From positions 1,178,001 through 1,242,000 of the forward strand of contig NW_020843829.1 of NCBI RefSeq assembly GCF_003704095.1: 64,000 nucleotides of DNA, given 5' to 3'. Made by a program: the position numbers and the translations under genes. Numbering within the stretch: the first letter of the stretch is position 1; each line of letters starts with the position of its first letter. This DNA comes from Pocillopora damicornis (Eukaryota). The notes under the pieces are model-generated. The model was given only the letters and a program-made list of their open reading frames with translations, was not told where the DNA came from and did no database searches. This document shows positions 1,837 through 40,800 of the stretch, piece by piece.

Positions 1837-4800
1837 ATGGAAAGTGGGAAACCTAGCTTTAGTCGTAGTAGGGGAAGTAGAAACGTGGACAGCGAACAAG
1901 AAACTACAGAAGCTAATGGCGGCCGCGACAGAAACAGAGTGAGGAACTTTACTTTTTTTAAGCTTTGGTTTTAACTGAATACTTAGACCCAAAGACCATG
2001 TATACACTCTTGGTAAGGACATTTACTATAGCATGTCTCTGAAGTAGGAAAGTTGCCTTCTGTTTCGTGCTTTTTTAGGACGATGATGAACTTTCTGTAC
2101 AAGGAAGTGAAAATGGTGGGCATCGTACACCCATGTTTAATGTTCCCGGGACTGCATCAACTAGATGGAGCTCACTATCCAGGTATACTTTTAACAGAGT
2201 TACATAGAAGTTTCTTTTTTAATCTCTTAATCGGCTTGGAGGTGCTCTAGCTAGCCTCAAGGTGAAAGTGATATGTTCTACATGAACAGTGTAGGGCTAA
2301 AACTNNNNNNNNNNNNNNNNNNNNNNNNNNNNNNNNNNNNNNNNNNNNNNNNNNNNNNNNNNNNNNNNNNNNNNNNNNNNNNNNNNNNNNNNNNNNNNNN
2401 NNNNTCTCATTGAAGAGAACTTGTCACTAGAAAGTACACCCTTATCTTGAGAGAACAACAGCATAGAACTGAGAAAAGAGGCCTGATTGTAAATGTATTA
2501 TGACTGATTTAGTTCATTCATTATCCAAATAATACCTCTAGGAAGTCAAGTATTCACAATAGGAGGTTACATTTCTCGCACCCAAGACAGTCCAGCTCAT
2601 TGGGGTCTATCAGCTTTATTGCATGTTGTAAACACAGGGTTTCTTAGTCAGTTTGGCTATCTTTTATCAAGTATGAACTCTGATGTTTCTACAGAGGACT
2701 CTGAAGATTACTTGGTGAGTTTGAATCATGTTAACTTGTTGCTTGGACTAGATAAAAGGTGGGCAGCAGGGGTGTCTAAGGTCTTCTAAAGTCAAGCCAG
2801 CCCCCAAATAAAATGCTTTCCCCATAGCTAGGAAATCCTTGCAACCCAACCATTTGCCCCTATTCCAGAAACCTGGCAATGGTGATTAAAACAGGGGATG
2901 TTGCTGCAATAATCAAATTGAGCCTGCATTTGAGGGGCTGACCACTGGCCACATGAGCCTTTTAAGCTGATGGTTGTTATCAGTTAACTAAATGAAATGC
3001 TGTGTTCACTTTTAACATTCTATTTGTGAATGAATGAGAATGATACATTCTGAGTTGGTCATTCAGTTAGAGTACTCTAGGAATGGAGGGAGGGATTAGC
3101 TTGATTGCAATGTTGTAATATTTTATGTTTTGAACGAGAATTCTCATGTGTTATCCAGTTTTTCTGATAATAATGCCCTCTTAAATGCAAATTATTTAAA
3201 AAGTATATTTTTACCAGTTTATTGTACAGAAACCCTTTCCAGTTCTGATTGGTCCTTGTGTGTTTGGTGGAAGCCTTTACCCTGTAAACAGCACAGAGAG
3301 CATTGAAATTAGAATGGAATATGCCATCAGTGGCCCAGATATAGATCAGGTACATTAACTCTCTTTAGGTTTGTGGCAAGTGTCTGTCTATAGCCGTAGG
3401 AAAGCAAAAGAGCAACATGTGATATTGATTTTTAATTTTATATCAGTGTGTAAGAAGAACAAACTAGCTGATAGGTTTGTTCAAAAAACATTTTCAATGA
3501 ACAACAGACTTCTATAAAATTTATATGTGGTCTCTCTTGAGGACAGCATACTTTGCTCTGGAAAAGTTGGTTGTGTAGAGCTAAGATCAATAAAACTACC
3601 CCAAACCTTTGAAAATTAAGAGATTATTTTAACTATGGGTAAGACAAGTCTGAGAGTGAAGGTTAAAGAAGGGAAAATCACAGAACTAATATTTTTGGTT
3701 TTAGAGGCAAAAAATTTTTTTTATCAATGACAAAACTTAAGGTTATTGCACTTTCAGAAATAATTTGCATACTCGGTCAGTATCAACTTGTAAGAACTTT
3801 CCTAAATAGCCTGTTGCATGAAATATCATAATATACTCATGGTTTAATTTTTTTTATGTTGGTTGTAGGCTTCAGAAATATTTGCCAAAGCAGTGTTAAC
3901 GGATCTCCAGAAGATGAGTGAAGCTGATACACACATTTTGCTGGGTGAGTATAATTTTTTCAATTCTATTTTTTTACTTTCCTGTTGTGATATAATTTAC
4001 ACTCAGTCTGAAAGATTATTACTGACAATAAAAAAAGCCAAAACTGTTTGTTAATTTAACTTTGATCCATAGAGACTAGTTGGAAATTAAATTGTTGAGG
4101 TGCAATTTTGTCTCCTCAAATGCTGGGAGATGAATAGTACTTGCTAATCAAATTTCCAATCGGCCAATCTGTGCACACAAAAAGGGCTATTAACCTGTGT
4201 TATATACAGTATACTAATTTCAACTGTTGAAAATAGATTGACACTGTTTTTAAGCTTCAACTTTACCTAGTGGACTCAATCTTCTACCTCAAAATAACCA
4301 TTCCCTAAATTGAAATTCACTCAAACTAAAGGCACATTTGGGTACTAATTAATTTTGGTGGTTATCCTACATGGTTTTTCACTGATTTTTCTCAAAATTT
4401 AGGTTTCACCATTCCAGTGGAAGATGCAAGAAATAGAGGGAAATGGATTGATGAATTTTGGACTTATCAAAATGTTGATGAAATAAAGGTGTATAACTAT
4501 GATGGTTTTTTTCTATTATAAGTTCACCTATTTTTTTAGTTATTTTGGCATCTTCTCCTCCTTGGAAGAAAACCTTATCAATTATTTTGTACATTATTAG
4601 GATCAGTTTTTGATGCTTGTCAAGTCTGCTGCCTCTGCTCAGAAAGTTGCTGAAGCTCAGGTACAGTTTTTTATTGTGTTAGATTAGCTCCATGACAAAC
4701 ACTTCCTAGCATTTTTAACCTTCAAACATGAACTGCCAATCTTAAACCATCTCCCAAGAGCTATGTCACACAATATCTTGACATTTGCTGTTCTCAGTAA

Positions 4801-10800: not shown

Positions 10801-13800
10801 AGCAAAGTAGTCACAACGACGGTCCAATCAGAAGAAAGAAAAATACGTGTAAGAGTCATGCAGTAAGTAAAAAAAACCAAACTTCCTGAAGCGCGGGAAA
10901 ACGCGGGCGACCGATTCGTGATTGGTTTTAGTTTTTCATCTGATTGGTTTAGAGAATGGCGCGAGTTTTCTTCACAAATCATAGAGCGAAGTAAAGCAAA
11001 CCAACGTAATATCGGATAATTTTCGAAACTAAAAGGAAAATTGCTCTTACTATCAATTTTCAAAAGTTATCTAAGATGGCATTTGCTTTTCTTTGCTTCG
11101 CTGGTATCGTTTTGGAAAACTCTCTTTTACGTACCTATTAAGAAGGACAAGATAATCTCTGGTTTTAAGTTAATTCTGACTTAATAATCATTTAGTTTCT
11201 AATCTTTCAGTGTTGTTTGTGGAAGAACAGGCTAAAACTATCGCTGCACCCGCTGTCATTGCAAAGGAAACTGTTTTGATGCAGGTAAACGAATGTGCCA
11301 ATGTTATCGTACATCAGTTCTAGGTTCGTCACTTCCAACCCACGCCAATTTTTTTCCATCCTTTGTCAATCTTTCAATCATCCGTGATTCTGTTTAGTTC
11401 ACTCTTTCCACCTAGAAGTTTTCTTCCACTCTTGCTTAATACTATCATTATTATTTTTTTAAGAATTCCTTCTGGTAAAGGAATTTTGTGTAATGTATAG
11501 ACAGCTCACAATGTCCATGGTCCAAAGTAAAGCAAAATAGAAAAAAAAACTCTAAGAAGAAGAAGTCGTAAACCTTAGAGGAACAGGAATGGCTAAAGAT
11601 GGAGACATCTAATACTTCTTGGAAATGAAGACCTTGAAAAATTTGATTTACATGTTTCATAGTACACAAACCATTAGGTAGCTTCTTTAAAGATCACGTT
11701 TTAAATAAGAATTCTACCCTTGATTATCTTAGTACCTTGTTGAATCGAAGCTTGATCAAGTGTTCCACGAGTTTTTAGTTGACCTCGTGACCGACGAGGA
11801 GTTCATCCCTCCAAATCCTTACCCTAGATTGACATCTGAACTCTCCGTGGCTGCCATGAAGTAAGATAACAGATAGCTTTAGCTTTTTAATTCTAGTAGT
11901 GACTAACATCTAATTTCTCCTTACGGTACCAGTCTTGAATCAAACAGTAAGGTCGTTAGAATAGAGCGAGTGACACTGCAATCAGTGATTGGTGATGTTT
12001 TTTGATCTGATCGGTCGAGAAAGAGGCGCGAGTTTTCTGAACCAATCACAGCAAAGCAAAGTAATCACAGTAAAGCAAAATCAAAACAACTTCGGATTTT
12101 AGAATAGAGGAAATGATCAGCATCTCAAAATACTCGATTGTTGAACAAATTCTCCTTGTTATTGTCAACAAATGTTGAGAGAAGAGTACAGAGCATACAA
12201 ATACTAATGTTAGGTTGTAACGTGGTAAAAGCGAGTGTCACTGAAATTAGTGATTGGTGATATTTTTTAATCTGATTGGTCGAGAAAGAGGCGCGAGTTT
12301 TCTGAACCAATCACAGCAAAGCAAAGTAATCACAGTAAAGCAAAATCAAAACAATTTCGGATTACTTAAGAGACTCACTTGAAAATTGTTCTAGTCAGGT
12401 GTATAAATAAGGGAAAGCTCCGTTTGTACCAGCCTGGCTCATTTTGCATCATCCTCTGACAGTCTTTGCTCTGCTGCAGAATGGACCTGTTTGGAGAGAA
12501 ACCTGCAAAGCTGTTGTCCAAACTTGTGACGACTTCTGTTCAACCTATCGATGTAGACAACTTTGTGTATCATATTCCTGGCATTGAAGCATATGGTGAG
12601 TGATTAGTGTTATTTTCATCTTTTCAAAAACTAATTCAGACTCTTCCCCCACCCGCTCCTCTTACTTCTTACATACAGAACTCCTTTACCACTTCGGGTT
12701 TTTTGTTGTGGATGGTACTGTTGTTATTGTCTATATTGTTTTATTTACGTGCCATTATTGGCCAACAGGCTCGGTAAGTGCGATAGCAGCACTGGATGGG
12801 AGACATTATAACACCCTTCGTTCCAGACTGCACAGTGTTGCCAACAAAGTCAGCACAAGAATCACGGTAGCAGGTTTTTCGGTAAGTTTACTTATGCTTC
12901 CGGTCCTGGCCGAGCAGTTGTTTTGGCCTATTTGAGTTATTGAATATTTCTGGTTAACTGAATACCTAGATTAAGAGTAACTTGAATGATGGTGGCATAT
13001 TTTTGTTATTGGACGATTTAGTGCATTTGAAAAGGCATGTGAAGCTTGTGTTCATTAATACCAGCTTACTTGCATTCAATGTAAAAAATTTACATTATAC
13101 TGACACGAGCTGCCGAGTAAGAGGCGTATTGGAAATATAACAGCCTGGTAAACTTAACTGTTTTAATTTTTTCAGACTGTTGTTGATCTGGGTGTGTGTG
13201 GTTTTAGCCCCATCTATGGTCGTATGATGCCATATTTACACGATGTGGACCTTGAGGAGCATTATTTTGTTCAAGGTCCAAGTCACAGGAAGGCAGAAGC
13301 CATACAACACTTCGCTAAACTTGGTGAGACGAAATCCTTACTAACTTCTCTGTAGTTTCATATAAAGTGCATTTCGATTGAGTGTCAGTAATCTAAGATC
13401 AAAGAAATCAACCCAGGTAACCATAGGAAAGGAAAATATAACGAGGAGTCGTTTAGTAAATAGAAGCAAACGGCTTTAAAACGCCAGTGACCCAGTCGCG
13501 ACTAGTGTTCACTTTTAATCTGATTGTTTGAGAAGGTGGCGCGAGTTTTGTAGACCAATCACAGAGCTAAGGAAAGCAAAAGGAGAGGAGTCTGTCGAGT
13601 AATCCTGGGAAATTACTCTTATAAGGGAAAGGCTATGAACTCGATAACCACATTTATACTGGAAAATTTTCAGGTTGAAACTTTTGATAAGATTTTCCTT
13701 GAAAGGTCCCTTTGTCAAAACCTGACGTGCCAATTTTTATTTTTAACACAGCGCATGCGAACGGTTGTGCTGTCATGTGCTCTAAGTGAGACAGGGTGAC

Positions 13801-16800
13801 AGTCAGCAGCAGTGGGATTTTGTGAGAGAAAAAGAAAATGAGTGAAAGGTCATAGTCCAGTTTACTACTCGCTCAACTAAACCTTGCGTCCTTTTTTTAC
13901 TTTTGTAGTATACGAGCATCTTGTGGACTTCAGTGAAAAGGAAGATGTTCTCTTTCTTGGTAAGCAACAGTCTTTTTTTGAAAAATATCATGAGCAGGCT
14001 GTTCGATCAGGGTACTTCGAATCAACGAGATGGTGTGTGTTAAGTATGAAGGGTAGTGCTTCTTGCCTTAGCAATCTAACCCAGTCTTTAAGATCGTGGG
14101 GCTCAAAGATTTTTCTCTCAACAACAGTTTGATTGACTCTTTTGCACGACATGGATGACTGCTTGTAGTTCTGATTTTTGATAATTGATGTTTTTTGAAG
14201 GTTTTTTCCTCGGTGGTGAAACTCTGAGGCGAAGTCTTCACGACATTGTTCCTCCTCAAAGAAAGAAAGCTTTCCTCTTACAGTTGATTTCCACTGTAAA
14301 ATCCAAACAGTCTCTGTATTTGAGAGTATGTATCCAAACTTTATATTCTGTCTTTGTTTTTCTTGTACCTCTGTCATCTTAGCTTGCGCAGCTGGCGGTC
14401 TTGTGTGCGCTTTGACAGGCTAAGCAGCGGAGCCTTGGACGCTTCGCCTTTAGTTTGCACACTTTCGTCGCTCATGGCTATTTTGAGAAGCGCTTACTAA
14501 ACTGTCCGTAGGTTCTTGTCATGTTCTACAGGGATACGCAACATTGAATTCTAACAACTGTGTTTACAGGTGTATGTTGCCTTTGATTGGCGGCTTGTCA
14601 TGGTGAAGAAGTCTTTTTGCCTGCACTTTTTGCAAGGACAAGAACAAGGGTGAGCCAACTAACCTGTCCCGTATGGTGTATGGGTGTATATTGCTAAACT
14701 AGCATCGTGTTACTTAGCAACATCTCGATCTTAAACCGTAAACTCTGTGGGGTTACGTTAGTATTAGTTCTACTTCCTTCACGCTTGGAATTTATTTCGT
14801 CGATGTTAACTGTCCGCTTTGATTTTTCCAATGAAACTGTCTCCCAAGTGACAAAATTGAGCGTAAAGTTGACGCCAAAATCGGGGCTAGCTCTATCGTG
14901 ATTTAAACAACGTGGCCTTTATTTACAGTAGATGACCGGTTGAATTTATTTTGTAATATCCAGGAAATTGAATTCTTTTGTTTCTGTTACTGTATCACTT
15001 GTTATTTCAGTTTATTTTTGACACTATCGTTTCAGTTACGAGCGGTTTTATAACTCAAACAGCAATCCACTGGCGTTTTATCAAATAGTCTTCTCAAAAC
15101 AGGATGCGGTAAGTTACAAACAGTACGAGAAAATACGGCCAGACAGCAAATGATAAATGAAAAAGTGATTAAATAAAATGAAATAAAATTATTAAAATAA
15201 TGCGCGGAACCGAGTTTTCACGAAATTTGAACTGAAATGCGTTATTCATCAGTGGGTGTAGTTTCCCGTATGCAAAAAAAACAATAGGGGGTGCATGTTG
15301 ATGATGCATGGTTAGCATTGATAGAGGTACTCCGCTGAGGTTTGAACTCAACGTCAACCTTGACTGTTATTATAGGCGTCGTTATACACACGATGCTGTG
15401 GACCCAAGGACCGCACGGACCCATGCAAAGGAGAGAATCTGGTACTTAGTTTAGTTCACGTGGATCACTACATAGAGCGAGCTAAGGAAGAAGATGACTT
15501 ATTGGCTGTTTATCGGTGGCTCATGGTGAAGTCGCTTATGAACCAGGTGAATGGAACTTTGGAAAATTTGAAATTTAGTCCAATGTAATCTGGAAAAAAC
15601 GTTGGATGTTCGTTGCTTCGTTCCTTCCTTCCTTCCTTCCTCGTTGATCTCGAAAACTCGCGCCACCCCCGCGACCACTCAAAGGCAAAATGTCACTCTT
15701 TGATTGGTCGAGAAAATTCTCTCTTAAACCTTTCAACCAATCAGAATCACGTGAAACGTAAACCATTCGCGCCTCAGGCTGTTTACCTGTTTTTACTCTG
15801 AGTACTCATTGATTCCCTATAAAAATGTCTTCTCTTCCGAATGTAACTTGTGATAACCTTGGTTTTGGTTTTACATCACTCAGTTGAAAAGCGCTCAGTT
15901 CCCTTAATAGAGGTAATTTTCTCATTAATGGCCAACAAATGAAAACCACGATACTTAGATTTTGATTCCGTCGTTTGGGAAGCCCCCTAGGCCAGTCGGT
16001 ATGATATGGTATAGTGAGTGAGTGTTTTGATGTTTTCACAGCACCAGTCGTATCTTGTAGAAGCATGGCGCATGTTCCATAGTGTGGCCTCCCAACTTGA
16101 GTACTTATGTACTGTCAATAGGACACTACAGAGCCTCGTAAATGAGGAAGTCAGCAGAGCATTCAGACCGGTGTTGGACGACGATGAGAGAACGGTAGGA
16201 GACACTTCATATCTGGCAAATTGCGAGCAGCCGTTTTCTTTTTTTTAAGGAACGCGAGAGTGTTGTTGCGCTGCTACACTCCCACAAAAAGAATGCTGAT
16301 CGCAGGTTATACGATAGAAAGACGATGAAAAAACGGAAGGAGACACGTCATGAAAAACTGCTGATTTTTATAGTAACGAGGAAAATTACTTCTGGAATGT
16401 AACTTTTTTCGTTACAAAGAAGTGATGATAAAAAAATGTTTTTATATTAGGGTGGATGGTAGTCTTCATCCTTATAGGATAGCTACAACAAGAAAAACAA
16501 TAACAAAAGTCTGTAATTGTTCTCTTTCTTGGCCGCCCACACCTAAAAATAAGTTGAACAGGCCAACTCTCATTGATTCTTTTCTTGGTTTTCCTAAAGT
16601 CACTTCTTGATGCCTCAGCTTTAAGTACCATGGTTACCGCGTATGGTGATAAACTGGAGCGGGTGTTATCCCTCGGGATAGCCCTAACGCCGAGTGGATT
16701 TTTGCCGCGCTTACAAGGTATTGAAGCAATCCAACTCGCCTTTATTTTCCGTTGTCAGATTAATAGGGTATTTTTCCGATGGTTCTTGCTTTTAGTTCGT

Positions 16801-17168
16801 TTGGATATTTAAAAAGTGAAATCACCTTCTCGTTTCTTTGCAGACAAAATCCGTCTAATGACTTCAACAGATCCAGTCTCTCGCAGATTAAATTTACTTA
16901 TTTCGACTGAAGTAAGTAATACACCTCACCTGATTATTTAACTGTTCATTTTGCTTCGTTAGGTCATTCGTTCTGTTCGTAACTGACGTGTTCTGTGTGT
17001 CTACAGACGCCGGTTATTCTACAAGAAATCAATGATCTGTTGCAGCCATTGTTGGATGCCGCTGCCCACAGTGTTCACCTAGCCTGTCCCGAGATTCATC
17101 ACGCGTTGAAGTCCGTTGAGGTTGACGTAACGGGCCGAAACTCCCGTATGTTAGCTGAACAAAAGTGA
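1837..17168 (+). CDS. Uncharacterised multi-exon protein (about 1110 aa visible), internally duplicated, with RIIa/Dpy-30-like D/D segment; at least one exon likely hidden in the N-gap
   Basis: Phase-consistent GT-AG exons: 1837-1938, 2079-2182, [gap], 2542-2714, 3230-3349, 3869-3944, 4403-4488, 4601-4660, 4925-5013, 5715-5860, 6983-7166, 8429-8521, 8933-9065, 9561-9637, 10011-10137, 10282-10374, 10640-10739, 11211-11284, 11733-11860, 12480-12595, 12769-12881, 13176-13323, 13909-13959, 14201-14325, 14570-14649, 15036-15108, 15376-15546, 16042-16194, 16600-16717, 16844-16911, 17007-17168 (TGA). All post-gap exons join in one open frame. Start MESGKPSF has a good Kozak context (agtATGg) after an in-frame TGA. 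Confidence 0.85.
2305..2404. other. Assembly gap (100 N)
   Basis: Run of N. Exon phases either side (2 out, 1 in) do not match in the main frame, implying missing exon(s). Confidence 0.95.
6347..6910 (+). mobile_element. Common coral MITE (TTAACCC...CACCCTAACATCAGTATG family), split by a nested element
   Basis: Degenerate match to the intact copy at 41469-41681, interrupted at 6493-6849. Confidence 0.6.
6493..6849. mobile_element. Non-autonomous DNA transposon (hAT-like) nested in a MITE
   Basis: Imperfect TIRs GGTAACCGGTCAAGTCGCCCGA / TCGGGCAACTTGACTGTAAGCC, internal TCGCCCGAA subterminal repeats, degenerate 8-bp TSD cagtggag / tagtgggg. Confidence 0.6.
7260..7685 (+). repeat. 46-bp minisatellite (about 8-9 copies), intronic
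   Basis: Unit GATACTAACGTAACAATCTGATCAACTACAATCTTAAAATGCGCGA with period 46. Degenerate copies resume at about 7853 and 8005-8075. Confidence 0.9.
7696..7855. mobile_element. MITE end fragment inserted in the minisatellite
   Basis: Ends ...TTGTATCTCGTATTTCCCCGCCTTAA with internal TTGTTGCG/CGCAACAA motifs; the satellite unit resumes immediately afterwards. Confidence 0.55.
10766..11048 (+). mobile_element. MITE family with CCAATCA/TGATTGG motifs (TAGAGCG..TTTCGATTGAGTGTC ... TTGAAAATTGCTCT)
   Basis: Related copies at about 11960-12100, 12230-12393, 13365-13620, 15690-15900 (reverse), 36290-36512 and 58240-58520. Confidence 0.7.
11733..11860 (+). CDS. Exon encoding RIIa/Dpy-30-like dimerization/docking motif
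   Basis: (Q)YLVESKLDQVFHEFLVDLVTDEEFIPPNPYPRL fits the YLxxxxLxxLFxxLLxxLxxxxPxNP pattern of D/D domains. Confidence 0.55.
11967..12362 (+). repeat. Near-identical ~130-bp direct duplication of a MITE segment
   Basis: ...GATTGGTGAT...GAGAAAGAGGCGCGAGTTTTCTGAACCAATCACAGCAAAGCAAAGTAATCACAGTAAAGCAAAATCAAAACAA.TTCGGATT occurs at about 11967-12098 and 12231-12363, separated by part of another MITE. Confidence 0.8.
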
Positions 17169-18429: not shown

Positions 18430-18726
18430 TAGTAAACGATTTCAAGTTTTGGACACAAATGACCGATTTCAAATTTTGGACACTAGTGAGCAATTTGAAG
18501 TTATGGCCACAAATGGCTATTTTGGGTTTTGGACACAGTGGCCTATTCTGGATTTGAGACACTTGTGGGTAATTGGAAGTTGGACATAAATAGCCGATTT
18601 TGGATTTTGGATACCAGTGGCCGATTTTGGATATTGGACCCTTTAGTGGCCGATTTTAGATTTTGGACACTAGTGGCCAATTTTGGAATATTGGGCCCTC
18701 GTGGCCGATTTTAGATTTTGGACAAA
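18430..18726 (+). repeat. Degenerate ~27-28-bp tandem repeat
   Basis: Unit TTTTGGACACTAGTGGCCGATTTTAGA, about 10 copies. It explains the overlapping spurious ORFs here. Confidence 0.85.
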
Positions 18727-21700
18727 AATCTTCCAAATGTCATCAAATAAAGACGGTCAAAGCCCGAAGTTTGATTTGCATTGCAAATTTTTTCAACGCC
18801 CTCATTTTGTATTCAACGTTGTCCAACGTTACTACACGAGGAGTCGAAACTTTGGCTTCTCCTGGAAAAAGGTCTCTAAATATCGGCTTATGTCGAAAAA
18901 ATTGTCGCCACAAGAGTATTAGACGTAAAGGACTGTCACTGGAACTTCAGTGTCCTCCTCATCATCAAAAATGTTTGGTCTACGTATGGGTTTGGAGAAA
19001 GCAATGGCGACGTCTTTGAGGCGCACATGGACGACTGCTACGGTATGTATCACGCTATCCGTTTTATTGCGTATTTTGAATATCATTGAGGTAGATATCA
19101 CAGAAAACAGCAAGCAAAGTTGATTTGCACGTAATTGTGTGTTGGGTACATTGACTTTGAGGTCTTACTCATTTGATTGGCATTTTAAGCGTGCGTGATA
19201 ATTGTAACTTTACAGGCGAGTTTTGCCCTTGAACTTGGTTGAGTTGTTATTTGAGTTGTTAGTTTAGAAGTCCAGCTCAGAAGTAAACTAAGAGGCCAAA
19301 CACAAACCCCTCGCACCAAGCCATTGGAAACATAGAATGAATGTTGTCATGCATTGAAATATGAAATATTACAAAAGCTAGGCTAACTTAGATTTTGTGA
19401 AAATCTCAAGTCGTGATGTTCACCGATTGTATTCCTAATTGAGGGAATTTTTTAATAAGTTGTCGAAAGTCATCTGAAATTGCGTTTAATCGGGAACCGA
19501 AGAGGAGAATTTTTAACGGCTTGATTCGATAGTTTCTTTCTCACAACTCCTATTTTCCGTTGTTTCTTTTGTACAAAATAATTTGTGCTAAGCTCAAAAT
19601 ACAATTAAATCGGGAAAATATTGGAAACTTGAAGTAAGCGGTTGATGGAGTGACATAAAAAACTCACATTGGCCAATGCCTGTTATCTTTTACTTAGCAG
19701 ACGACAATGTACAGTATATCCTCTCAAGGCTGTAGCTATCATTATCAATCAGATAATTAAGACAAGTCTTTTTATCTTCTGGGTACCATATCTATGTGTG
19801 ACAAGCCAAAGACTTTATTAAATGTTGTTTTAAAAAGGGAGGTAGTCATTCCACAGTGATGTATGACATTTCACAGGAGCATTTGAGTGAAAAAAAGAAA
19901 AAAAAACCGAGAGAATTTTTGATTATCAGTCTATACAGTAAACATTTTGTCGTAAAAAATGAGAAAAAGTCTGGAAAATTGATACAACTTCCTTTTCTGT
20001 GAACGTTCTGAGCTCTCCTTATGACCATACACTTTGTCCAAACAAATTAGCCTCTAGTTTTAGAGTTATTTTGCCTTCAATAAAATTAATTATAAAAATG
20101 TACTATGCATGACTTGTTCACAATTTTTCTAAAGATTATTGATATTTTAAGGATTCAAAAACCGGCTACAGAATAAATGCTTTGGATTTGTCTGGTTTTT
20201 TTGGGCCAAAACTAATCAGTGACGCCAATAAATGGGAATTTTTCAATCAGTCGTCGAAAGTAATCCGGAAATGAATTTCATCGGAAACTGACGAGGACGA
20301 TTTGAAATGGCTGTGCCGGCTAGTTTTCTTTTTCATGACTCTAATCTTTCGTTGTTTAGCCCGCAGATTCTTCCGTACAAAATAATATGTAGATTACTAG
20401 ATTTAAATAAAAAAATACATAAATTTAATTTGTTTTCTTTTTTTTTGTTTCTTTGATCAAGCTGATTTCTCGTCAGGTTTAGAGGAATATGCACAAGATA
20501 TTGTCTCACTGGCTCAGTGATCTGGATAGTTTTGATAGGGGCTGGTTTGTTCACTATGCAAAAAAAAACCACAACACAACACAACACACAAAACAAAAAA
20601 ACAAAACAAAGAAAAAGAGAAAAAGATCAAATTTTCATTTTAATGAGAAGTTTTCTCTCCAAGAAAGACATTCCTGTTTTCTATGAACTGACGTCAATAC
20701 ATAGAAATGGTTTTGTTTATTTTGAAAAGTGATCAATTTTCAATTTCTCCTCGTAATTTCAAAACAAAGTTAAGTGTACCAGGCAGGAGAATATAGGAAA
20801 CAATCAAGTTGAATTGATCAAGTTAAATAAAATGTTAGGTCATTCACCAGTATGACGGGAACGAACAAATAATATCATATTTAAAGTGAAGTTAACAAAA
20901 AAAAGTTAAGAATTTATCACGAATAAATCGTTTGGCCATCAGCGAGGAGATTCCAGGACGTATTATTAATTACTTCTGGATTTGATGCTATTTATTTCAA
21001 TTTACAAGATAACTTTTGAACATAATGTTCTTTGTTAGTTTCGAGATTGAATGAACTTTAATTTGCTGCGGAATGATGCAAAAAAAATAAATAAATAAAA
21101 AAAAAACCAATTAGCTTTGACGGTTATCCTTTAGGGTTAGAGCTTTGACAGCTTTGCCTTAACTTGACTAACCTGATACATTAAAACTACCTTTAAAAGT
21201 CTTTGAATATAGATCATGTTAATGGCGTGAGTGTGTGTGAATGTGTCGTGTATGTATGCAGATGTCTACATTTTACATGTAACATCACAAGACTAGTATT
21301 TAGCTAGGAAATCAAGCGGTTTACCTAGACTCTGGGCTGTTCCACCTAACACTGTAGATGCATGTCTACATTTAATTTTATTTCCTATATATATATATCT
21401 ATAGGAATTACATTTAGCTAAATATAATTATATATTTAATGTAATAGGTTTAGGAAATGTGTGATTAACTATTGTTGTTATTGTTGGTCGTATGCAACAT
21501 GACGTTACAGTGATCAATAACTATATTTCTTTTTTTAAAAGGTTTTGGACATCACGGAAAAGAAAACGAGAGATAACGAAACATCAAAATCCTATAACGT
21601 GGACAGAAGAAGACGTGGAGATAGACATAGAACTGATACAATTGAATTACAATCACTCGCAAGATCATTTCTGAAAAAAAAAAACAAAAAAAAAAGTAAG

Positions 21701-31800: not shown

Positions 31801-34800
31801 TGGAAAGAAACAGTAGCTGTTCTATCATTTTCTCCTCTGGTAAAATTGGAAAGACAGCAAGGCTAACATGAAGGTACTTTGTTATGTTCGCATTTATTGA
31901 GGAGTTAAAGGATAAGTTACGTTAATAAAAATTTTCCTTACTTTTGGCTGTCCTGGTTCACGTGAGAGAGCTGTCCATATTTCAGTCAAGGCGCCATCGC
32001 TTTTCGCTTTCGCCATTTCATCCTTGTATATATAATCTTGAGTAGAGTTTCTACATCCGAAAAACAACAACATTTCGCCCCACTTTCCCGACGAAGGTTG
32101 TGAAGCATTCTCGTCCTGTTCTTTTTCTGAGAAGAGTTGACGCTGCAAAGAAGAGCTACCCCCGAAGGAACGATGTGGCGTAGGAGGAGTTGTTTCAGGA
32201 GAGTCCCCACGGGTGAAAGCAAAGTTTCGACGCTGTATTAAAGGGCTTGAGTCTGGTGTAAGGTCCAACGTCCTTGGCTTAGGAGCACTTGTGTTCACAA
32301 TGTCAAATTGGCGCTGTTGCCAAAAGCTTCTGAAAGGAGCTATACCAGTCCCAGGCCCCACCATTATCACTGGGACCGTGCCATCTTCGGGCAAATGAAA
32401 GGTCTGGGCTCTATAAAAAAGGAAATAGGTAGCCTGGTCAAAGGTGATCTTGCCTCTCATATGTTTGCTAATCTAAGATAAACAGAGAGTTTCCTTTTTT
32501 TTCGGAATTTAAGAGGAAAAAAAGGCGGAGAAATGGTGAACATATAAACACTTAAATGATGCACATTGGACATGGTATCTTGTGACTTTAAAGGTGTGTA
32601 CTGCCCTGAGGTGAATTTCTGAGTTTTAAAATCATTCATCTCCACTCATACTCAGTACATACCAACGTTTTTATACTAACTGAGTTTCAAAACGCAAAAG
32701 AAGTTGAGACATGGACTTACTGCCGCACGTAACAGGCCACTTTGTCTCCAGGTTGCAAACTATTTAACCACGTGGAGCAAACGCCATGATGTACGGGACC
32801 TTTTCCACCTGAGACGTAACGCAGCAGAGTACATAGAGTTACCAAGACAATCCATGAAAAAAAACTCGTTAAATATATCAGGTTGTACACAGCTCCGAAG
32901 AATACCACAATTAATCCGTAACTTCATAAGATATAAATCATATTAAATTTCTCCATTTTACCTGCTATACATTTTATTGTCAAATAGTTGGTGTCATATC
33001 GAGAGAACACCATCTCGCTGATAACTTTCAGTCTACTTTCATCACCATATTGTTCTATGATTGCTGATCACTTCTGAAGCGCACACAAAAAGCACTATTC
33101 TAATTTGTTGCCCTCTATTGTCAAGGGAGAATTTTCAATTAAACACAGTTCCTCATATTTCTTACTCACTTATATTTCTTCTTACTGCAGAATCAACTAC
33201 CTCACCTCTCTTGTTATATTGTACCACTGCCACTGTGAGGTGAACTTCACCTGGGAAAAAGTCTGGCGATGATGAGATGGAGTAGAAACGCTGTTGATAA
33301 CAAAGAAATAATTTTAACAAAGATCGTAGTAATTTATGAAAGGAGATTCAGAAAGTCTCTAATCAGCTTTGTCATAAATTTGAGTGAGGTACACACGCGG
33401 GACTTTCAAAAATTCTTTTTGAGATCTTTGCTCTTAGAGTGGGCTGGTAACGCGTTAAGGAGTTTCACGTGTAGCAAAAACAAACTTTACATTCTATCTC
33501 AGTCCCATAAATTTGAGACGGGTTTTAAAACTCTAACATAACACTTCACTCCTTAACATCAGGATGAATTTTCTCCAAACCGTTCTCGTCACAATTTCTA
33601 TGGTCCCCAACAATGAGAACTTGCGTAACAATTAAAAGCGCCTTCAGTTGGTGATCATTTCCTATACTCTCATGACCTTAATGTTTGATTCAGCCGTGAT
33701 ACTGTGAGGATAGATTAGACGCTAGTCGCCCTTTTGGATTAAGGGCTTAAACAGTGACCATGACTTATGGCTGATAACGAAGAAGGCTCGTTTGACTCTC
33801 ACAAAGACAGCTTCAGCTCCTGTCGATCTACCAAGGCGGAGCTAAAGGAAGGGGTGGGAGTCCAAAGGAGCATGTGACCCCCTCCCACCGTTCGCCCCTC
33901 TCTTCGTCAAGAAAAAGTGTTAATTTATGCAGGCCTCTCAATGCCATTAGGATGCCGCCCTTTTTTTCTTTTTCGGAAGTACTGCCCACACCCAGTTTAT
34001 ATGATGCGCATGTTTACTTCCTTCAATAAATTCTCCTACCCTAGGGGGACCTTTACTTATTAACGTCATCAAACGGGATTGTTTTAGCGGGTTTCACCGT
34101 AAACAATTAGGTGATTGTAACTTCTTTCAGGTCTATCAAGCAGTGCGACTTACCGGCTGCAACAAAGGCAGCTGGGTGAGTAATAAGTCAGCTGGAACTT
34201 GTAAGGAAGGATGCTCTTGTAGCACATCAAGAATGTTACATTCACTTCCAAACTTCCAGTCCTCGTATCGGTTATTACCCTGAGAGAAAAAGAAATAGAC
34301 AAAAGAAAACGAAAGAGTTAAATTAAAAGCATTTATGAAGGAAGACTCAAGTTCAGAACTTAGAAGGGCTTTTACATATATAACGAGGAACAGACGGAAG
34401 ACCTCACCTGGCTAAGAATCTCAAGTTTTTCCTTTTCTGCCGGGTCAGTAGCCTAAAAAGAAGTGTGGAAATTTTTAAATGGATATTAAAATGGTAATGT
34501 CTTAGTTCAGTAGGTCGAAAATATAGACAAACAAATAAGTGGAAATGAGATGTTGCCGATAAACGAAAACTACGAAAGTAGGCTTTCGTTATCGCATCCT
34601 GGGGTACGGGATCTTACAGATAACCAAACGAAATTGACAGTGATACACTGTTACTCGTCCCAACCTGGGTACGCCGCCGAGGTACAGGAAAGTTCGTGAT
34701 ATTCAGGGCTCGAAATAAAATAAACTGGAACTACAGTAAAAAGCACTGGTACTAGCATTAGAGAGAGGAATCTGTTAGACTTAAAATGAACTGTAGCGGA

Positions 34801-37800
34801 ATTGTAAATCACAATAATTGGTTCAACCGTTGAGACTTTACCGTAGCAGACAAAGCTTTCAGGATCTGCGGTGAAGGAACACTTGTGACGTCCAGGTAAC
34901 GTGAGAGAGCTTGACGCAGCGTGGTTTGTGACGGAAGACGGTTGTAAGTTTCCCATTTCTTGGCTGTTTTTAGAATACCTAAGTAAAGAATAGCAGTAAA
35001 ATTATTACCTTCTCTCACCTGACGTTTGACCCCACCCCTCTTTGGTAATTGGTGGTGTGTTCTAAGCAGGATACTAAATTCCTTCAGAGCCTTTTCCACC
35101 CCGGAGCATGAATGGGGGCCGGCATGCTGTCAAGGAAACTGGACGAAATGCTGTTGGAAGGTTTTCGGTTAAGTATAGACGACGTGCTGACTGGTCACTG
35201 AAAATATCTCACAATTTTTTTTTTTTTTAACTGAACTAAAGTTCACCTTTGACTTCTCGTGAGGCCTCGACAACGATTGGTTTATCGGGATCGACGTCAT
35301 CTGATAGCCTGTCAATCAAAGCTTGCACCAGCTCTGGGCGATTCGCGGGAAAGATGGCCACATGATCACCTGGTTTGTACTGCAGTTCTGTGCTGTTCTC
35401 TGTTTTGAGCCGGACTGAGATGGTCGAGCGACTAAAAGAAAAAAATAGCGTTTAAGTTATAATTTGTCTGATTTTCAGCCTTTATTCAAGAAATGCCTTC
35501 TTCCTGTGTTTGTCGCTCTCAAAGAAAACTGACAACGGCAATCTTTAGGCACCTTTATAATATTTTAACCCTTTAACTCCCGTGACTGACAAAGACATAA
35601 TTTCTCCCGACTATATTTATACGATATCATGCAGACAAGTGATGAGAATAAAGAAAAATATCAATTATGATATTACTAATTGATCCGATACCAATTTCTC
35701 CAGACTAACATAATAAGAATCGTTTGGCAATCAGTAAGAAGAACTACTAATGAGAACGTGGGAGTTAACTTTAAAAGGAACAACACTGAAATCCTTTCAG
35801 TAGGTTTCAAGGAATTCTATGATATTGCACTTTTAAGCATTTTTTCAAATGTCATGACTGTCCATGTCCTTTTCCAAGAGATTAGCTAGTTGCTTTCAGA
35901 TAGTCATGCTTACGAGGGAGATCATGATTCGCAAGCTTCTTTTTTCTTTTTTTTTCTTTGTTGTTGTTGATGTTGTCAGCCCACCCTTACTCATTGGCAG
36001 CCACTTATCGAGAGCTTCGAACTCTGGTAGAATCAACTTTATTCTTGTGCAAATACTATTTACAGAGCTTATCGTTTATACACCCCTCACATCTTATGAT
36101 ACATCATCGAGGAGCACTCGCACTAGATAATTAAACTAAAGAAATCGAGCAACATGCACTTATTATGAAGATATTCGACGTGAAATTCTTCATCAGACTG
36201 TAACTGAACAAAGCATAGATCCCAATGACACCCTCTATTACAAGCCTGTTCACGACCATTTTGGGCCGAAAACTACCTCTTTAAAGTGCATATAGATCGA
36301 ATGTCGTAAATAAAAAACCTAATAACCACAACAGCCAATCAGAACGACGGCAAACACCAGTTTTAACCAATCAAAAGTCTGACGGGCGGGAAAATGATCG
36401 AAAGTTTGAATTCATGAGGGTATGGCATGAGTTTTCGGAAAAATCATAGAGCTTAGCTAAGTAATATCAAACTTGTTCCAGAGTACGATGGACCGTCGAT
36501 TGAAATTGCTCTGATACAATATAAACATTATTGCAAACTACTTATGCAGGCCTTGTTTGATAACGCAAACATTTTCGTTGGCAGTGTTGTTGTTGTTGCT
36601 TTTTTTTTCCTTTGTTTGTTTGTTTTTTTTAATCCCTTATGACATTTTAGAATCGTTTCCGCAGAACACGCATAAACATCAGCTGTTGTTGATCAGGGCT
36701 TGTTTGGGCGCAGAGTCCATCCCTTCTATCGGTGACCTGCACATCACCAGTCACATTCTGACGCGCAACTCTGCGCAGATGCACCACTTGAACCACAGGC
36801 GCAACTCTTCTATCTATGGGTTGCATTTGGTCACCAGTCACCTTCTGCTGACGTTTGGTGATCTGATTTCGCTTAACGCTCTGCTTGTTCTTTATTTTTC
36901 CAGGTTTTTCAGAAACTGACCGAGGTTCATGGCATCCACCAATCGTGTTCTTCCTGTGTGAAATTTTTGTGGATCGTTCCATGGCCGGCTCGTCCCCTTG
37001 ACGCTTGGACACCATAACTGTCACTCGCGTTCGACGAACTAAGCTCGGCCTGAGGATCTCTCCTTCAGTTTGGACTGCTGGTGATCTTTTTCTTGAACTT
37101 TGGACAATATCATTCTTACGTGACGTTAACACCGGTTTGGCTACCGCTACTCCTCTCCGCCTCTCTTTTTGTTGACCTTCAGGATGTTTGACTAAACTCT
37201 GTGTTATTTTGCAGCAATGGACCTCAACCTGTTTCTCTCTGAAAGGAAACTGATCTTGAACCAAACTACAACTAAGCTCTCTTATTCGCCGTTCATTGAT
37301 TGCAGGCAAACAAAGTGTATTCTTCTTGGGAGCTTTGGATGCACAACAATAGGCCTCCTTCTGCTCCCCCGTTACACTCTGAGACGAGGAATTCGCTGTT
37401 ACTGGCGCTTCTTCGCACTTCGTCGACAGCGCAGTACAAGAAATCGTTGGTGTCTCTTCATTCGTGAGGAGCGAAGTGTCACGGTAACAGAAAATGTCCG
37501 ATGTTTCTTGAATTTTGCTGAACGAAGTCTGTGTTGTAACCCCTTCGGGCTGCTTCAGACCGGTATCTCCTGGAGAACAGCAATGATTCCTATTTCGGAA
37601 AGCCTCACATAACTCCATCATCGTTTGAGTTTGGGTTTTTCGGCTCATGTTCTTTGAATTTTTAGGAGGCAACTAGACAATTGGTACGAGTTGGAAAGGT
37701 TGAGTGTTTTAAGTTAAATGCATTCAATTTATATTTAATTGAATGAGGTCATAAGTGGTTGGTATACGTGGAGTCAACAGAAACGACGTAAATGTGAAGC

Positions 37801-40800
37801 CCTGGGTGATCAAATTGAAATCACGGAATCGTTACCTGTTGCTTATTTTAAAAAGTTTGACACAGAAACGACGTAAATGTAAAGTGCAAATGTGAAACGT
37901 AAATGTGAAGCGCTACGTGGTCAAATTGAAGTCACGGAATCGTTACCTGTTGCTAAGTTTTGACAAATTTGACCCATTAAAACATTTTCTAAGAGCAAAT
38001 GTCGTAAATACTTAGCTTATCATATGTAAAAACCGATTACGATAGAAGATATATTTAAAAAAACTTAAAAGTCGTTTTTTTCGGGTCATAAAGTGCTCTT
38101 ATTTTATTTTAAAAGTGTCCCGTGGACTGGTAACGAATTAGCGGGTGATGACGTAGGGAAACTGAGAAACCTCTCAATCGCTCTGACGAAGGGTTACCGC
38201 CCGAAACGTCAGCCTTTAAACTCTTTACGGTGGCCAATTTGTTTTCCATGACGAAATCTATGTCAAGAATGGGTAGCTGTGATTGTTTCTGTTGCCATAA
38301 CATTTTATTCCCTCGCACTGACGAAGGTTCCCCTTGCTTAGTGCTCTCGAGTTTCGTTGCTGTGCAGTAATTCCCTTAGCAAACCAAAAGCTGACTTTTG
38401 ACGAAAGAGTCAGCTGTAACACGAGGCACGATTATTTTTCGCCGAGAATTCATCGGGCAGTTTCACTGCAAGTTGCTCCTTTCCTTAGAGATTGCAAAGG
38501 CAGAGGCTATCGTCGTCGAGCCGGTCAAACGGAAAACGAGTAAGTATATAATTATCTGATTCAAGTTAATCTCAAATAGGGGGTTAATAGAGAAAAACTT
38601 TTTTTCGTTTAAGGGCAGCATTACCATATGACCCATTTCGCTCAATGGCAAATAATTGAAATCAGTATGTAAATGAATATTTCGTATGCATCGACTTTCA
38701 CACAACCTGTGGATTCGCTATCATCTAATTCAATAAAATTTATGTTACTCTATTTATCTACCTAATTTGGAAGGCCTTACAGCTCCATCATTGTAAGGTT
38801 CAGGTTTTATTACTCATATTGTTTGACTTTTCACGACGCAAAAAGGCGGTTCTTGCAAGTCAAAAAGGTAGAGCGTCAATAAAGAAAAGACATCTTTACT
38901 CATTCACTGACCTGGATTCAGGAGACTGCAAGTTCTTCACTGATAACAACGTCGCAGATCGCACTGTCTTACCGCAAATATGAGTCAAACCTATACAGAC
39001 AAGAAGGAATCAAATAAATAATTGGATGGCAAGAAAGATGACAGAATATTCAAATATGAAATATAATAGACTTGTAATTTGATCTACTCTGTACGCAATT
39101 GCAGTCTCGTGTCCCTAGCAAGTATTTGTGCCATTTTGGTTATATAGCTAAATAAGAATCCGCGCCATTTCAAATACCTGTTAATTAAGGGAGAAGTGTC
39201 ACTTTCAAGAACCTCGTAATTTTCATTTATTTTTTAAAACGAGTTCAGTGTCACAATTGTCTAATGGTGGTGACAAATTACATTGTTTCTGAAGTTTACT
39301 TCGCCCGGCTTAACGGTGAGAGGTTAAACTAGCTAATTAATAAATTCAAAATGTCTCTGAACACATTTCTAACCTCGGACAATTTCACTGTGTCCGTCCG
39401 GTCCATCAGTTGCTTCAGTAAAAGCATGCACGGCGGTGATCATAATTGTAGCAAGCCGAAAGCGGCCTGGTACCCAGCCGCTCGGTACTGTATCTAGAGA
39501 CTGACTGGCCTCATTTGTTATTTCGTCACTGATACAGAATGAGTCACAGGCGGCCTGAGGATTCAAAGACAAATAAATTCAATAGGTCTTGGGATTTGAC
39601 ATAGGGGAAGATAAATTGATTGGGAAATGATTGCAACTGCTTTTGGTTCGTTTTGACTATCGGCATTCAATTGGAAAGCCTCAGACAGCTGTAAGGGGAA
39701 CAACACTCAACTTCCAGCTACCGTTCATATCTCAAAAATGTCCGTATTTCAGTCCTCTAGTATTTATTACTTCGATCAGTTCCAATATATTTTCACTCGT
39801 TCTGAAGAGAATAAGGCAGCTTTCAGGGTGAGTCTAACAGTTAACGGTTAAACGAGCTTGCAAACCTATAATGTTAGTAAGCTTCTCCGAACATGTTGTT
39901 CTTTACCTTAAATACGTCTTTGGCCCACATTTTGAAAGACTCCTCTTGACCACATAACTCATCCCCTTCTCCCATCTTCAACACGGGCTCTCCTCCAAGT
40001 TCCCGAATGATCTTGTCAAGCGAGCGAGCAAATGCACAGAAGTTTGGGTAGGCCCTGGAGCCCAGGCCAAACACAGAGTATCTTTAAAGTTTAAAACATA
40101 TGTATTAACCCTTGCAAGCGACACATCGTAAATAAGCGACTCCGTTCTACTGTCACATAGTATATTAAACAAACAGACGCGTCGTCAGTTATAATTTCAA
40201 TTTTTAATTAAACATGTAGGGTCTAAGTTTATGTGGAATAAAAACTCGAATTTTGGAGTTCCTTTTATACAAGTTCATTTGTACCCTCGTCACTAAATGT
40301 TTTCCGTATCTTAACTTGGTTATAGCTGTTCGAACTCTACACATTTCGTTTAGACTGGTGTCTTTAATCAGGAACTGTATCCTCCAAACGCGATGTGTCT
40401 AATATGCGATTTTAGAACAACCACTTACGTAGGAATTTCTCGTTGTGTCTCATTTTTTGGGATATTTTTTTGTTTGCTTACCTGAGGTTAGCAAGTGGTT
40501 GACTGTTGTTCATTACATCGATACGTTTTTCCTTCTCTTTTTGAACCAACAGGCTGCCGAGTTGTTTCATCATGTTGCGCGACGATCGACTTCTAAAACA
40601 CAAGAAATAGCGAGGATATAAAATCTGCATCCCCTATTTAACGATCAGATTATAAGCGAAATAACAGCAATAATAATGTTTATGATGATATTATAAAGGA
40701 TTGAAAAGAGAAGCTCGGTGTGAAAGTTTTCTAGGGACGAAATACAATTGTTGAGTAGGGATTAAACAAATGAACAAATTGAATGGGCTTCCAACCTAAT

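Follow-up and report, generated by a model that had tools for sequence, protein, structure and literature searches.

We focus here on a single gene of the coral Pocillopora damicornis, which lies at 1837..17168 on the forward strand of a 64,000-nucleotide stretch of contig NW_020843829.1 (positions 1,178,001 to 1,242,000 of assembly GCF_003704095.1; this whole stretch is called the window below), and on the 1,196-residue protein that it encodes. The gene carries an internal duplication of one unit, as is confirmed below. In predicted structures each unit almost certainly has a Pol-beta-type nucleotidyltransferase fold of the type known from the giant-virus proteins Mg662 and L544, preceded by a docking/dimerization-like motif and followed by a helical domain. 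Judging from the aligned residues, canonical catalysis has very probably been lost, and the duplication itself probably predates the last common ancestor of eukaryotes (LECA). For the function of this protein we tentatively favour a rigid scaffold without catalytic activity, its likeliest place being motile cilia or flagella.

Evidence for the duplication comes from the two halves of P0003, a protein found with one exon as the query (1,196 residues, a 3,892-base Logan contig, 73 cluster members). Aligned singly, the halves score 130 against a shuffle mean of 37.7 (standard deviation 5.0, maximum 64, 500 shuffles), which corresponds to z 18.5, and the halves readable from the window alone give z 7.1. 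Half-against-half comparison by HHalign gives probability 99.5 and E 4.7e-23 over 469 columns with 11 sequences, and probability 100 and E 3.8e-51 over 467 columns, 89 of them identical pairs, with 89 and 94 rows. An earlier note, made from the letters of the window alone, had proposed a tandem duplication and suggested self-alignment of the spliced protein as its check; these values bear the proposal out, and all seven segment pairs that it quoted are aligned together in the HHalign comparison. The match runs through the whole unit, from residues 84/689 to 643/1180. Unit 1 comprises ~560 residues (84-643, including a disordered insert at 390-446) and unit 2 ~495 residues (689-1183), and the figure of ~450 residues first given for the unit was too small.

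When P0003 is mapped onto the window by tblastn, 30 exons are visible. The 28 exons between 2542 and 17168, with AG acceptors, GT donors and no internal stop, give 1,048 residues, 1,038 of which are identical to P0003. The span originally drawn, 2542..17168 with a product of ~1100 residues, keeps its exon chain free of internal stops, while the start moves to 1837 and the length to 1,196 residues; an ATG at 1916 was discarded as the start because P0003 and RNA both support 1837. Residues 70-147 (~78 codons) fall in the gap at 2305-2404, the only run of N in the window; they have no match elsewhere in the coral's own genome, and RNA contigs from two studies bridge the gap with 232 letters between 2183 and 2539. 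Transcripts also back the exon chain, with all six joints of 2542-5860 present in all four RNA runs from two studies and at least eight more joints of the gene among the RNA joints listed, one of them with the 232 gap-bridging letters; the listed joints checked individually lie outside 7166-11211 and 12595-15376. The gene is single copy, all 28 of its 28 own-genome matches being at this locus. Its product has Stylophora LOC111339076 as the closest named protein (80%). The public model of that protein, P0001, contains two internally repeated stretches and a read-through intron, which are probably errors of assembly or annotation.

The two halves also have introns in common. Exact agreement of codon and phase is found for four of the 14 first-half introns (11 of them mappable), compared with a random mean of 0.11 and none of 20,000 placements reaching four; with an intron at the edge of an alignment gap the count becomes five of 14 (12 mappable), the null figures applying to the four only. 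Three of these had been noticed before, at residues 275/881 (phase 1), 324/923 (phase 0) and 353/949 (phase 2), and all three prove exact. As to the remainder, one intron is off by one base, one by one codon, and seven are unmatched or unmappable. In the part of PMC9120149 drawn on here, 20-35% of LECA introns are common to pre-LECA paralogs and ~5% arise through parallel gain, and five shared introns in 14 thus fit inheritance. One of the P0001 repeats starts at the residue equivalent to the phase-2 intron of unit 2 at 738, a hint of a sixth shared intron within the window's gap.

A profile search returned 654 matches at E≤0.001 and 271 at 1e-10, of which 150 of the 654 were listed and 30 looked up, 20 with an organism name and 10 without one. 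Under a strict rule, the best unit-1 match precedes the best unit-2 match in 79 of the 88 homologs of at least 850 residues, and the exceptions, among those listed, likewise show both units. The looked-up animals are molluscs, annelids, a brachiopod, a flatworm, a hemichordate, echinoderms, tunicates, a teleost, a newt and a sponge, and the looked-up non-animals are Salpingoeca, Thecamonas, Gefionella, Cyanophora, Palpitomonas and the brown alga Choristocarpus. Two-unit homologs thereby extend over animals, a choanoflagellate, an apusomonad, a malawimonad, a glaucophyte, a brown alga and Palpitomonas. All 20 named records are annotated as uncharacterized, one of them as a DEP-domain protein. 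Together with 12 species from the initial sequence searches, the look-ups make 32 named species, 26 of them animals; no fungus, flowering plant, red alga or amoeba is among them.

When 60 units of 30 proteins are placed in one tree, a single branch separates first from second units (100/99, and 100% of 200 bootstrap trees), with a bootstrap that is not fully settled and with long branches in the tree; the whole-protein tree, which has 100 sequences, agrees broadly with the relationships of the organisms. Members sit on both sides of the usual eukaryote root, and with the unit split this makes one pre-LECA duplication the simplest reading. The intragenic duplication that had been called ancient would thus be older than was implied, since the split holds over animals and six non-animal lineages. 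The vertebrate-like branch of the whole-protein tree has 14 rows, its named members being the teleost and the newt; mammals, birds and insects, none of which is named in the look-ups, may have lost the gene. Two further members deserve mention. P0075 (Thecamonas AMSG_05626) carries an additional N-terminal DEP domain at residues 30-104 (E 3.9e-9, over the cut-off), which hints at a membrane or signalling contact in the Thecamonas lineage. P0126 (522 residues) matches one whole first-type unit, with a Met start and an end soon after the unit, and is either a one-unit form that occurs in nature or the product of a gene model that was split.

Structure prediction provides the link to known folds. 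AlphaFold models the full chain, with 71 sequences, at a predicted local distance difference test (pLDDT) of 86.5 and a predicted template modelling score (pTM) of 0.86, disorder being confined to 1-80 and 390-446; P0057, a naturally occurring fragment of one unit, reaches pLDDT 94.2 and pTM 0.92. Each modelled unit begins with three helices and continues with an alpha/beta domain and a helical domain, and the two units are predicted to pack in a fixed arrangement. For both models the top three Foldseek matches are 4xul, 4amq and 4ams, that is, giant-virus Mg662/L544. Alignment of the full chain to Mg662 by VIA-align gives Z 19.3 with a root-mean-square deviation (rmsd) of 3.7 over 288 aligned residues (model residues 655-1183; next entry 9.5), and that of the single unit gives Z 19.6 and rmsd 3.6 over 285 (next entry 8.8), with 9-10% identity in these alignments. 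The core (unit 1 model residues ~177-370) matches TUTase, poly(A) polymerase, Pol lambda/mu and TdT at Z 6.4-7.9, with Rel also among the core matches at Z about 6.5-7.9, and Legionella DrrA matches the single unit at Z 8.2 over 227 residues. Thirteen predicted viral structures also match at E≤0.001, with template modelling scores by target of up to 0.66; they come from Pithovirus, Fadolivirus (V21-like), Mimivirus, Zamilon, Sylvanvirus, mavirus, two lake virophages and Tupanvirus, four being without a name. The comparison covered solved structures and predicted viral ones, and a closer relative among predicted cellular structures is possible. Identity to the viral proteins is 8-11%, and hidden Markov model searches of PDB sequences do not list 4xul, 4amq or 4ams at E≤10. 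As for the viral proteins themselves, the consulted part of PMC5786535 ties V21-like proteins to Mg662/L544 by HHpred with probability 100, a passage of PMC3671162 gives V21 as uncharacterized, and a table in PMC11594714 enters 4XUL as GTP-bound.

Sequence-level searches leave the family without a name. Pfam yields a best E of only 0.21 for P0003, no family in more than one of 11 aligned members, and four single matches among 42 homologs, of which only the Thecamonas DEP domain passes the cut-off. Sequence searches of the PDB gave no match (best E 1.4, 0.094 and 1.2). In the ESM Atlas, unit 2 has no usable match and the newt homolog finds only helical-solenoid clusters below 0.9. Phage records gave no match, and a pattern scan of viral contigs gave 15 candidates, none confirmed. 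The family was not found in the literature, where gene ids differ between studies and where subscription papers and preprint supplements lay outside the search, and a member may thus figure in some proteome table; one Ciona proteome supplement does not carry the homolog's gene id. Hexokinase, phosphorylase kinase and DNAAF9 were considered as identities and ruled out by the Pfam and fold results. The domain, which had been described as undescribed, is so at the level of family, with no consistent Pfam match in 42 homologs and no PDB sequence match, and is not so at the level of fold, with Z 19.6 to the Mg662/L544/V21 type; the fold is known, the family and the architecture are so far undescribed.

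The active-site motif of such enzymes is hG[GS]x(9-13)Dh[DE]h, completed by a third acid on a later strand. It was sought in 81 rows for unit 1 and 90 rows for unit 2, after 19 and 10 gapped rows of 100 had been excluded. The G[GS] loop is present in five of 81 and five of 90 rows, the coral sequence reading Gly-Pro and Gly-Phe at this place. Both acids of DxD occur in six of 81 rows for unit 1 and in 15 of 90 for unit 2, where 18% of rows are acidic at the first acid position. DxD together with the third acid, the carboxylate triad, is found in 0 of 81 rows of unit 1 and 0 of 90 of unit 2. Both units keep Lys340/936 (90/92% basic), Arg508/1040 and Ser512/1044; with the triad absent, this looks like a pseudoenzyme in which the binding of a ligand may have persisted.

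Each unit begins with a Tyr and a helix, followed by a Leu-Pro-x-Asn-Pro-Tyr-Pro loop and another helix, and these are among the best-conserved parts of the family. The earlier note had not registered this motif, whose first copy lies concealed in the assembly gap. Helices are predicted at 84-95, 97-109 and 119-135 (motif 1) and at 688-699, 702-715 and 725-741 (motif 2), and conservation stands at 89% for Tyr91, 97% for Tyr696, 94/98% for Pro115/118 and 69/93% for Pro721/724. Compared with ten coral Dpy-30/RIIa sequences, residues 80-134 are the best of 53 windows of the protein (probability 46, E 2e-4, 42 columns), and against RIIa alone the two motif windows rank first and second. Pfam Dpy-30 and RIIa occur at six and eight places genome-wide, none in this gene, and no Dpy-30/RIIa structure stands in the listed top rows of the fold searches. 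A complex prediction of motif 1 with motif 2 scored 0.02, the alignment being unused and the partner fold uncertain, and speaks neither for nor against their pairing. The layout agrees with the DPY-30/RID2 feature set in the portion of PMC12203939 relied on here (helix, Tyr, helix 1, two-proline linker, helix 2), and the same portion places the partners of DPY-30/RIIa-type domains mostly in cilia and flagella. The motif is docking-like, and we consider it fairly probable that it is a true docking domain.

Taken together, a scaffold of this kind could have arisen when a homodimer became a one-chain pseudo-dimer through duplication, which we infer to have happened before LECA and after introns had spread. 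The two docking-like motifs would jointly grip a partner's amphipathic helix, as in DPY-30 and RIIa domains, and the dead clefts, with Lys340/936, Arg508/Ser512 and Arg1040/Ser1044, may bind or sense nucleotide without turnover. A ciliary location is suggested, as a possibility we take seriously rather than as an expectation, by the type of motif and by the fact that all 32 named species have motile cilia or flagella at some stage, which also agrees with the restriction to organisms with motile cilia raised in the earlier note. We also entertain a longer history, which we think unlikely, in which a gene belonging to the giant-virus and virophage L544-V21 lineage, or the cellular gene from which that lineage came, joined with a docking domain, acquired introns, doubled before LECA and became a nucleotide-sensing flagellar part, kept in aquatic lineages from glaucophytes to newts and overlooked through its loss from the usual model organisms. 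A forkhead-type 8-mer at 1775-1782, 55 bases ahead of the start codon, is not counted, such 8-mers numbering five in the window against 4.97 expected.

Several points weigh against a non-catalytic ciliary scaffold. In part of PMC9120149, ciliary pre-LECA duplications are reported without shared introns, and these halves share five. Pfam Dpy-30 (PF05186) and RIIa (PF02197) miss P0003, the 42 homologs and this gene; against Dpy-30 alone other windows outscore the motifs, and motif 2 is weak (probability 1-4). The ciliated set of 32 has low discrimination, with its 26 animals and its origin in 20 of 30 look-ups from 654 matches plus 12 others; it was counted without non-ciliated eukaryote genomes as a control, and no mammal, insect, Chlamydomonas, ciliate or kinetoplastid is among it. 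A 100-sequence profile matches no chain of the PDB, which contains many axoneme structures. The catalytic positions were located from the order of the strands and the spacing of the motif rather than from a superposition of coordinates; coral unit 2 retains Asp837 and Asp839, without the third acid, and Glu842, special to unit 2, is acidic in 89% of rows.

Other accounts of this protein have to be considered alongside the ciliary scaffold. Utp22/NOL6, with two dead modules, and NF45/NF90 use the nucleotidyltransferase fold non-catalytically, and a non-ciliary pseudoenzyme scaffold of their kind, binding for example RNA or ribonucleoprotein, would have the same fold class, catalysis likewise apparently lost, a two-module build and a use for the basic residues conserved in the helical domains. 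We nevertheless hold it to be doubtful, as core RNA-processing genes are seldom absent from fungi and plants, yet none of these is among the 32 named species, and no Nrap or DZF Pfam match was found in 42 homologs. Part of PMC12203939 adds on its behalf that DPY-30-type domains act in nuclear complexes too, and the PDB keywords of Mg662/L544, in the section of the PMC5786535 supplement drawn on here, mention transcription. The protein could instead be an active, atypical nucleotidyltransferase engaged in AMPylation, GMPylation or the synthesis of a nucleotide messenger, with unit 2 catalytic and unit 1 regulatory. The Mg662 structure was solved with GTP according to its PDB title, DrrA is among the structural matches, unit 2 retains Glu842, Lys936, Arg930, Arg1040 and Ser1044, and DxD persists in 15 of 90 rows, the coral included; with no triad in any of the 90 and 81 rows, a G[GS] loop in five of 90 and a first acid position so seldom acidic, we judge such an enzyme improbable.

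That the closest structural relatives found all come from giant viruses and virophages, and that OAS and CD-NTases belong to the same fold class (as weak matches), could also speak for a host-virus conflict protein, a domesticated giant-virus or virophage gene serving as decoy or sensor against large DNA viruses. The gene is single copy, with a fixed two-unit build and a tree that broadly follows organisms, unlike fast-turnover defence genes, and it shows 8-11% identity to viral proteins and no relative in the pattern scan of viral contigs, which leaves this origin very improbable. It is scarcely conceivable that the similarity is due to chance or to errors in gene prediction or assembly: the Stylophora model P0001 does have spurious duplicated exons and the window's gap does lie inside the gene, but the halves match at E 3.8e-51, the RNA contigs are spliced and the two-unit order recurs in 79 of 88 long homologs.

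Table. Parts of the two-unit gene and the introns its halves have in common (window coordinates; residues numbered as in the 1,196-residue protein)
Feature	Position	Strand	Basis and remarks
Exons 1-2, residues 1-69, predicted disordered N-terminus	1837-1938, 2079-2182	+	tblastn of P0003; RNA joint 1938>2079; pLDDT <50 for 1-80
Assembly gap	2305..2404	.	Conceals exon(s) for residues 70-147, including docking/dimerization-like motif 1 (84-135)
Unit 1 predicted nucleotidyltransferase-fold domain, residues 148-~387	2542-2714, 3218-3349, 3869-3944, 4403-4488, 4601-4660, 4925-5013, 5715-5860	+	Splicing, RNA, model match
Exon for residues 402-463, mostly disordered insert	6983..7166	+	Unit 1 only; pLDDT <50 for 390-446; within 2,959-base RNA contig of run X3
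Unit 1 predicted helical domain ending in four-helix bundle, residues 463-637	8429-8521, 8933-9065, 9561-9637, 10011-10137, 10282-10374	+	Splicing, model
Inter-unit linker and first helix of motif 2, residues 638-695	10640-10739, 11211-11284	+	Splicing, model
Docking/dimerization-like motif 2, residues 696-738	11733..11860	+	Conserved Tyr696, Asp699, Asp703, two-proline loop; RNA joints on both sides
Unit 2 predicted nucleotidyltransferase-fold domain, residues 738-973	12480-12595, 12769-12881, 13176-13323, 13909-13959, 14201-14325, 14570-14649, 15036-15108	+	Splicing, model
Unit 2 predicted helical domain and stop, residues 974-1196	15376-15546, 16042-16194, 16600-16717, 16844-16911, 17007-17168	+	Splicing, model, four RNA joints
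Shared intron, phase 1, residue 275	3945..4402	+	Partner 13960-14200, residue 881
Shared intron, phase 0, before residue 324	4661..4924	+	Partner 14326-14569, before residue 923
Shared intron, phase 2, residue 353	5014..5714	+	Partner 14650-15035, residue 949
Shared intron, phase 0, before residue 607	10138..10281	+	Partner 16912-17006, before residue 1144; new relative to the earlier note
Probable shared intron, phase 0, after residue 205	2715..3217	+	Partner 12882-13175, after residue 814; borders an alignment gap

The rest of the window contains further features. A flavin-containing monooxygenase gene at 948-1556 on the reverse strand, continuing to the left (Pfam FMO-like, E 2.6e-58), stands head to head with the two-unit gene, and as the two start codons are 281 bases apart the genes may share a promoter. 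On the reverse strand at ~31900-49840 lie PDZ-domain exons (48949-49836, E 5e-13) and an NAD-binding reductase domain that contains a long insert (31894-32472, E 3e-11), which we take to look like a PDZ-bearing nitric oxide synthase; within the span of this synthase-like gene, an open frame of 341 codons at 36647-37672 on the reverse strand, with no Pfam match, is either an unusually large exon or a nested gene. Tandem arrays are found at 7342-7684, in an intron (46-base unit, 7.5 copies, 90% matches), and at 18437-18729 (27-base unit).

What emerges is an unnamed, eukaryote-wide and probably LECA-old family, whose predicted architecture of docking motif, dead nucleotidyltransferase and bundle, twice over, was not found elsewhere in these searches. 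The orphan L544/Mg662/V21 proteins of giant viruses and virophages would gain a cellular counterpart, and the direction of gene flow between early eukaryotes and viruses thus becomes testable. If the internal duplication is pre-LECA, the five introns common to its halves in this one living gene would themselves be older than LECA. Should the protein be ciliary, it would be a large, unassigned candidate for densities that lack an explanation in the axonemes of invertebrates, fish and protists, and the flagellar history from the L544-V21 lineage, if true, would give that family its first cellular branch and provide a case of a pre-LECA duplication in cilia whose halves share introns. Tandem pseudo-nucleotidyltransferases and docking-domain fusions are kinds already known; the link to giant-virus and virophage orphans is the unexpected part.

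Known systems resemble the coral protein in different portions. The DPY-30/RIIa docking-domain proteins, such as AK7, NME5, ROPN1 and SPA17, share with its motif an N-terminal helix, Tyr, helix, proline-capped loop and helix ahead of an enzyme-like domain, whereas the coral motifs fall below Pfam cut-offs, occur as two copies per chain and are fused to a nucleotidyltransferase fold, a pairing found in none of the papers listed. OAS2/OAS3, cGAS-like proteins, CD-NTases and TENT5 share a Pol-beta-type fold with a helical C-lobe, and OAS2 is a tandem repeat too; their matches are weak, far below Mg662 (OAS1 E 0.028, OAS2 E 0.08-0.1, TENT5 Z 7.0), and the coral protein differs in having no catalytic triad and no Pfam match to these families. 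Utp22/NOL6 (Nrap), a tandem pseudo-nucleotidyltransferase scaffold of ~1,100-1,200 residues without catalysis, is alike in size, in its two nucleotidyltransferase-fold modules and in the absence of catalysis, but the Nrap Pfam domain is absent from P0003 and 42 homologs, Utp22/NOL6 has no docking motif, and 6zqc_UV, presumably the Utp22 chain, ranks 29th in the fold search (E 0.31). Closest of all are Mimivirus L544, Megavirus Mg662 and virophage V21 (4amq, 4ams, 4xul). The viral proteins are mostly single units of 240-450 residues, whereas the coral gene is doubled and intron-rich; there is no match at the level of sequence, and the structural match begins after residue 103 of the unit, leaving the docking-like motif uncovered. 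From there on, core and helical domain are alike in the coral unit and the viral proteins, at Z 17.6-19.6 over 270-286 residues with rmsd 3.4-3.6.

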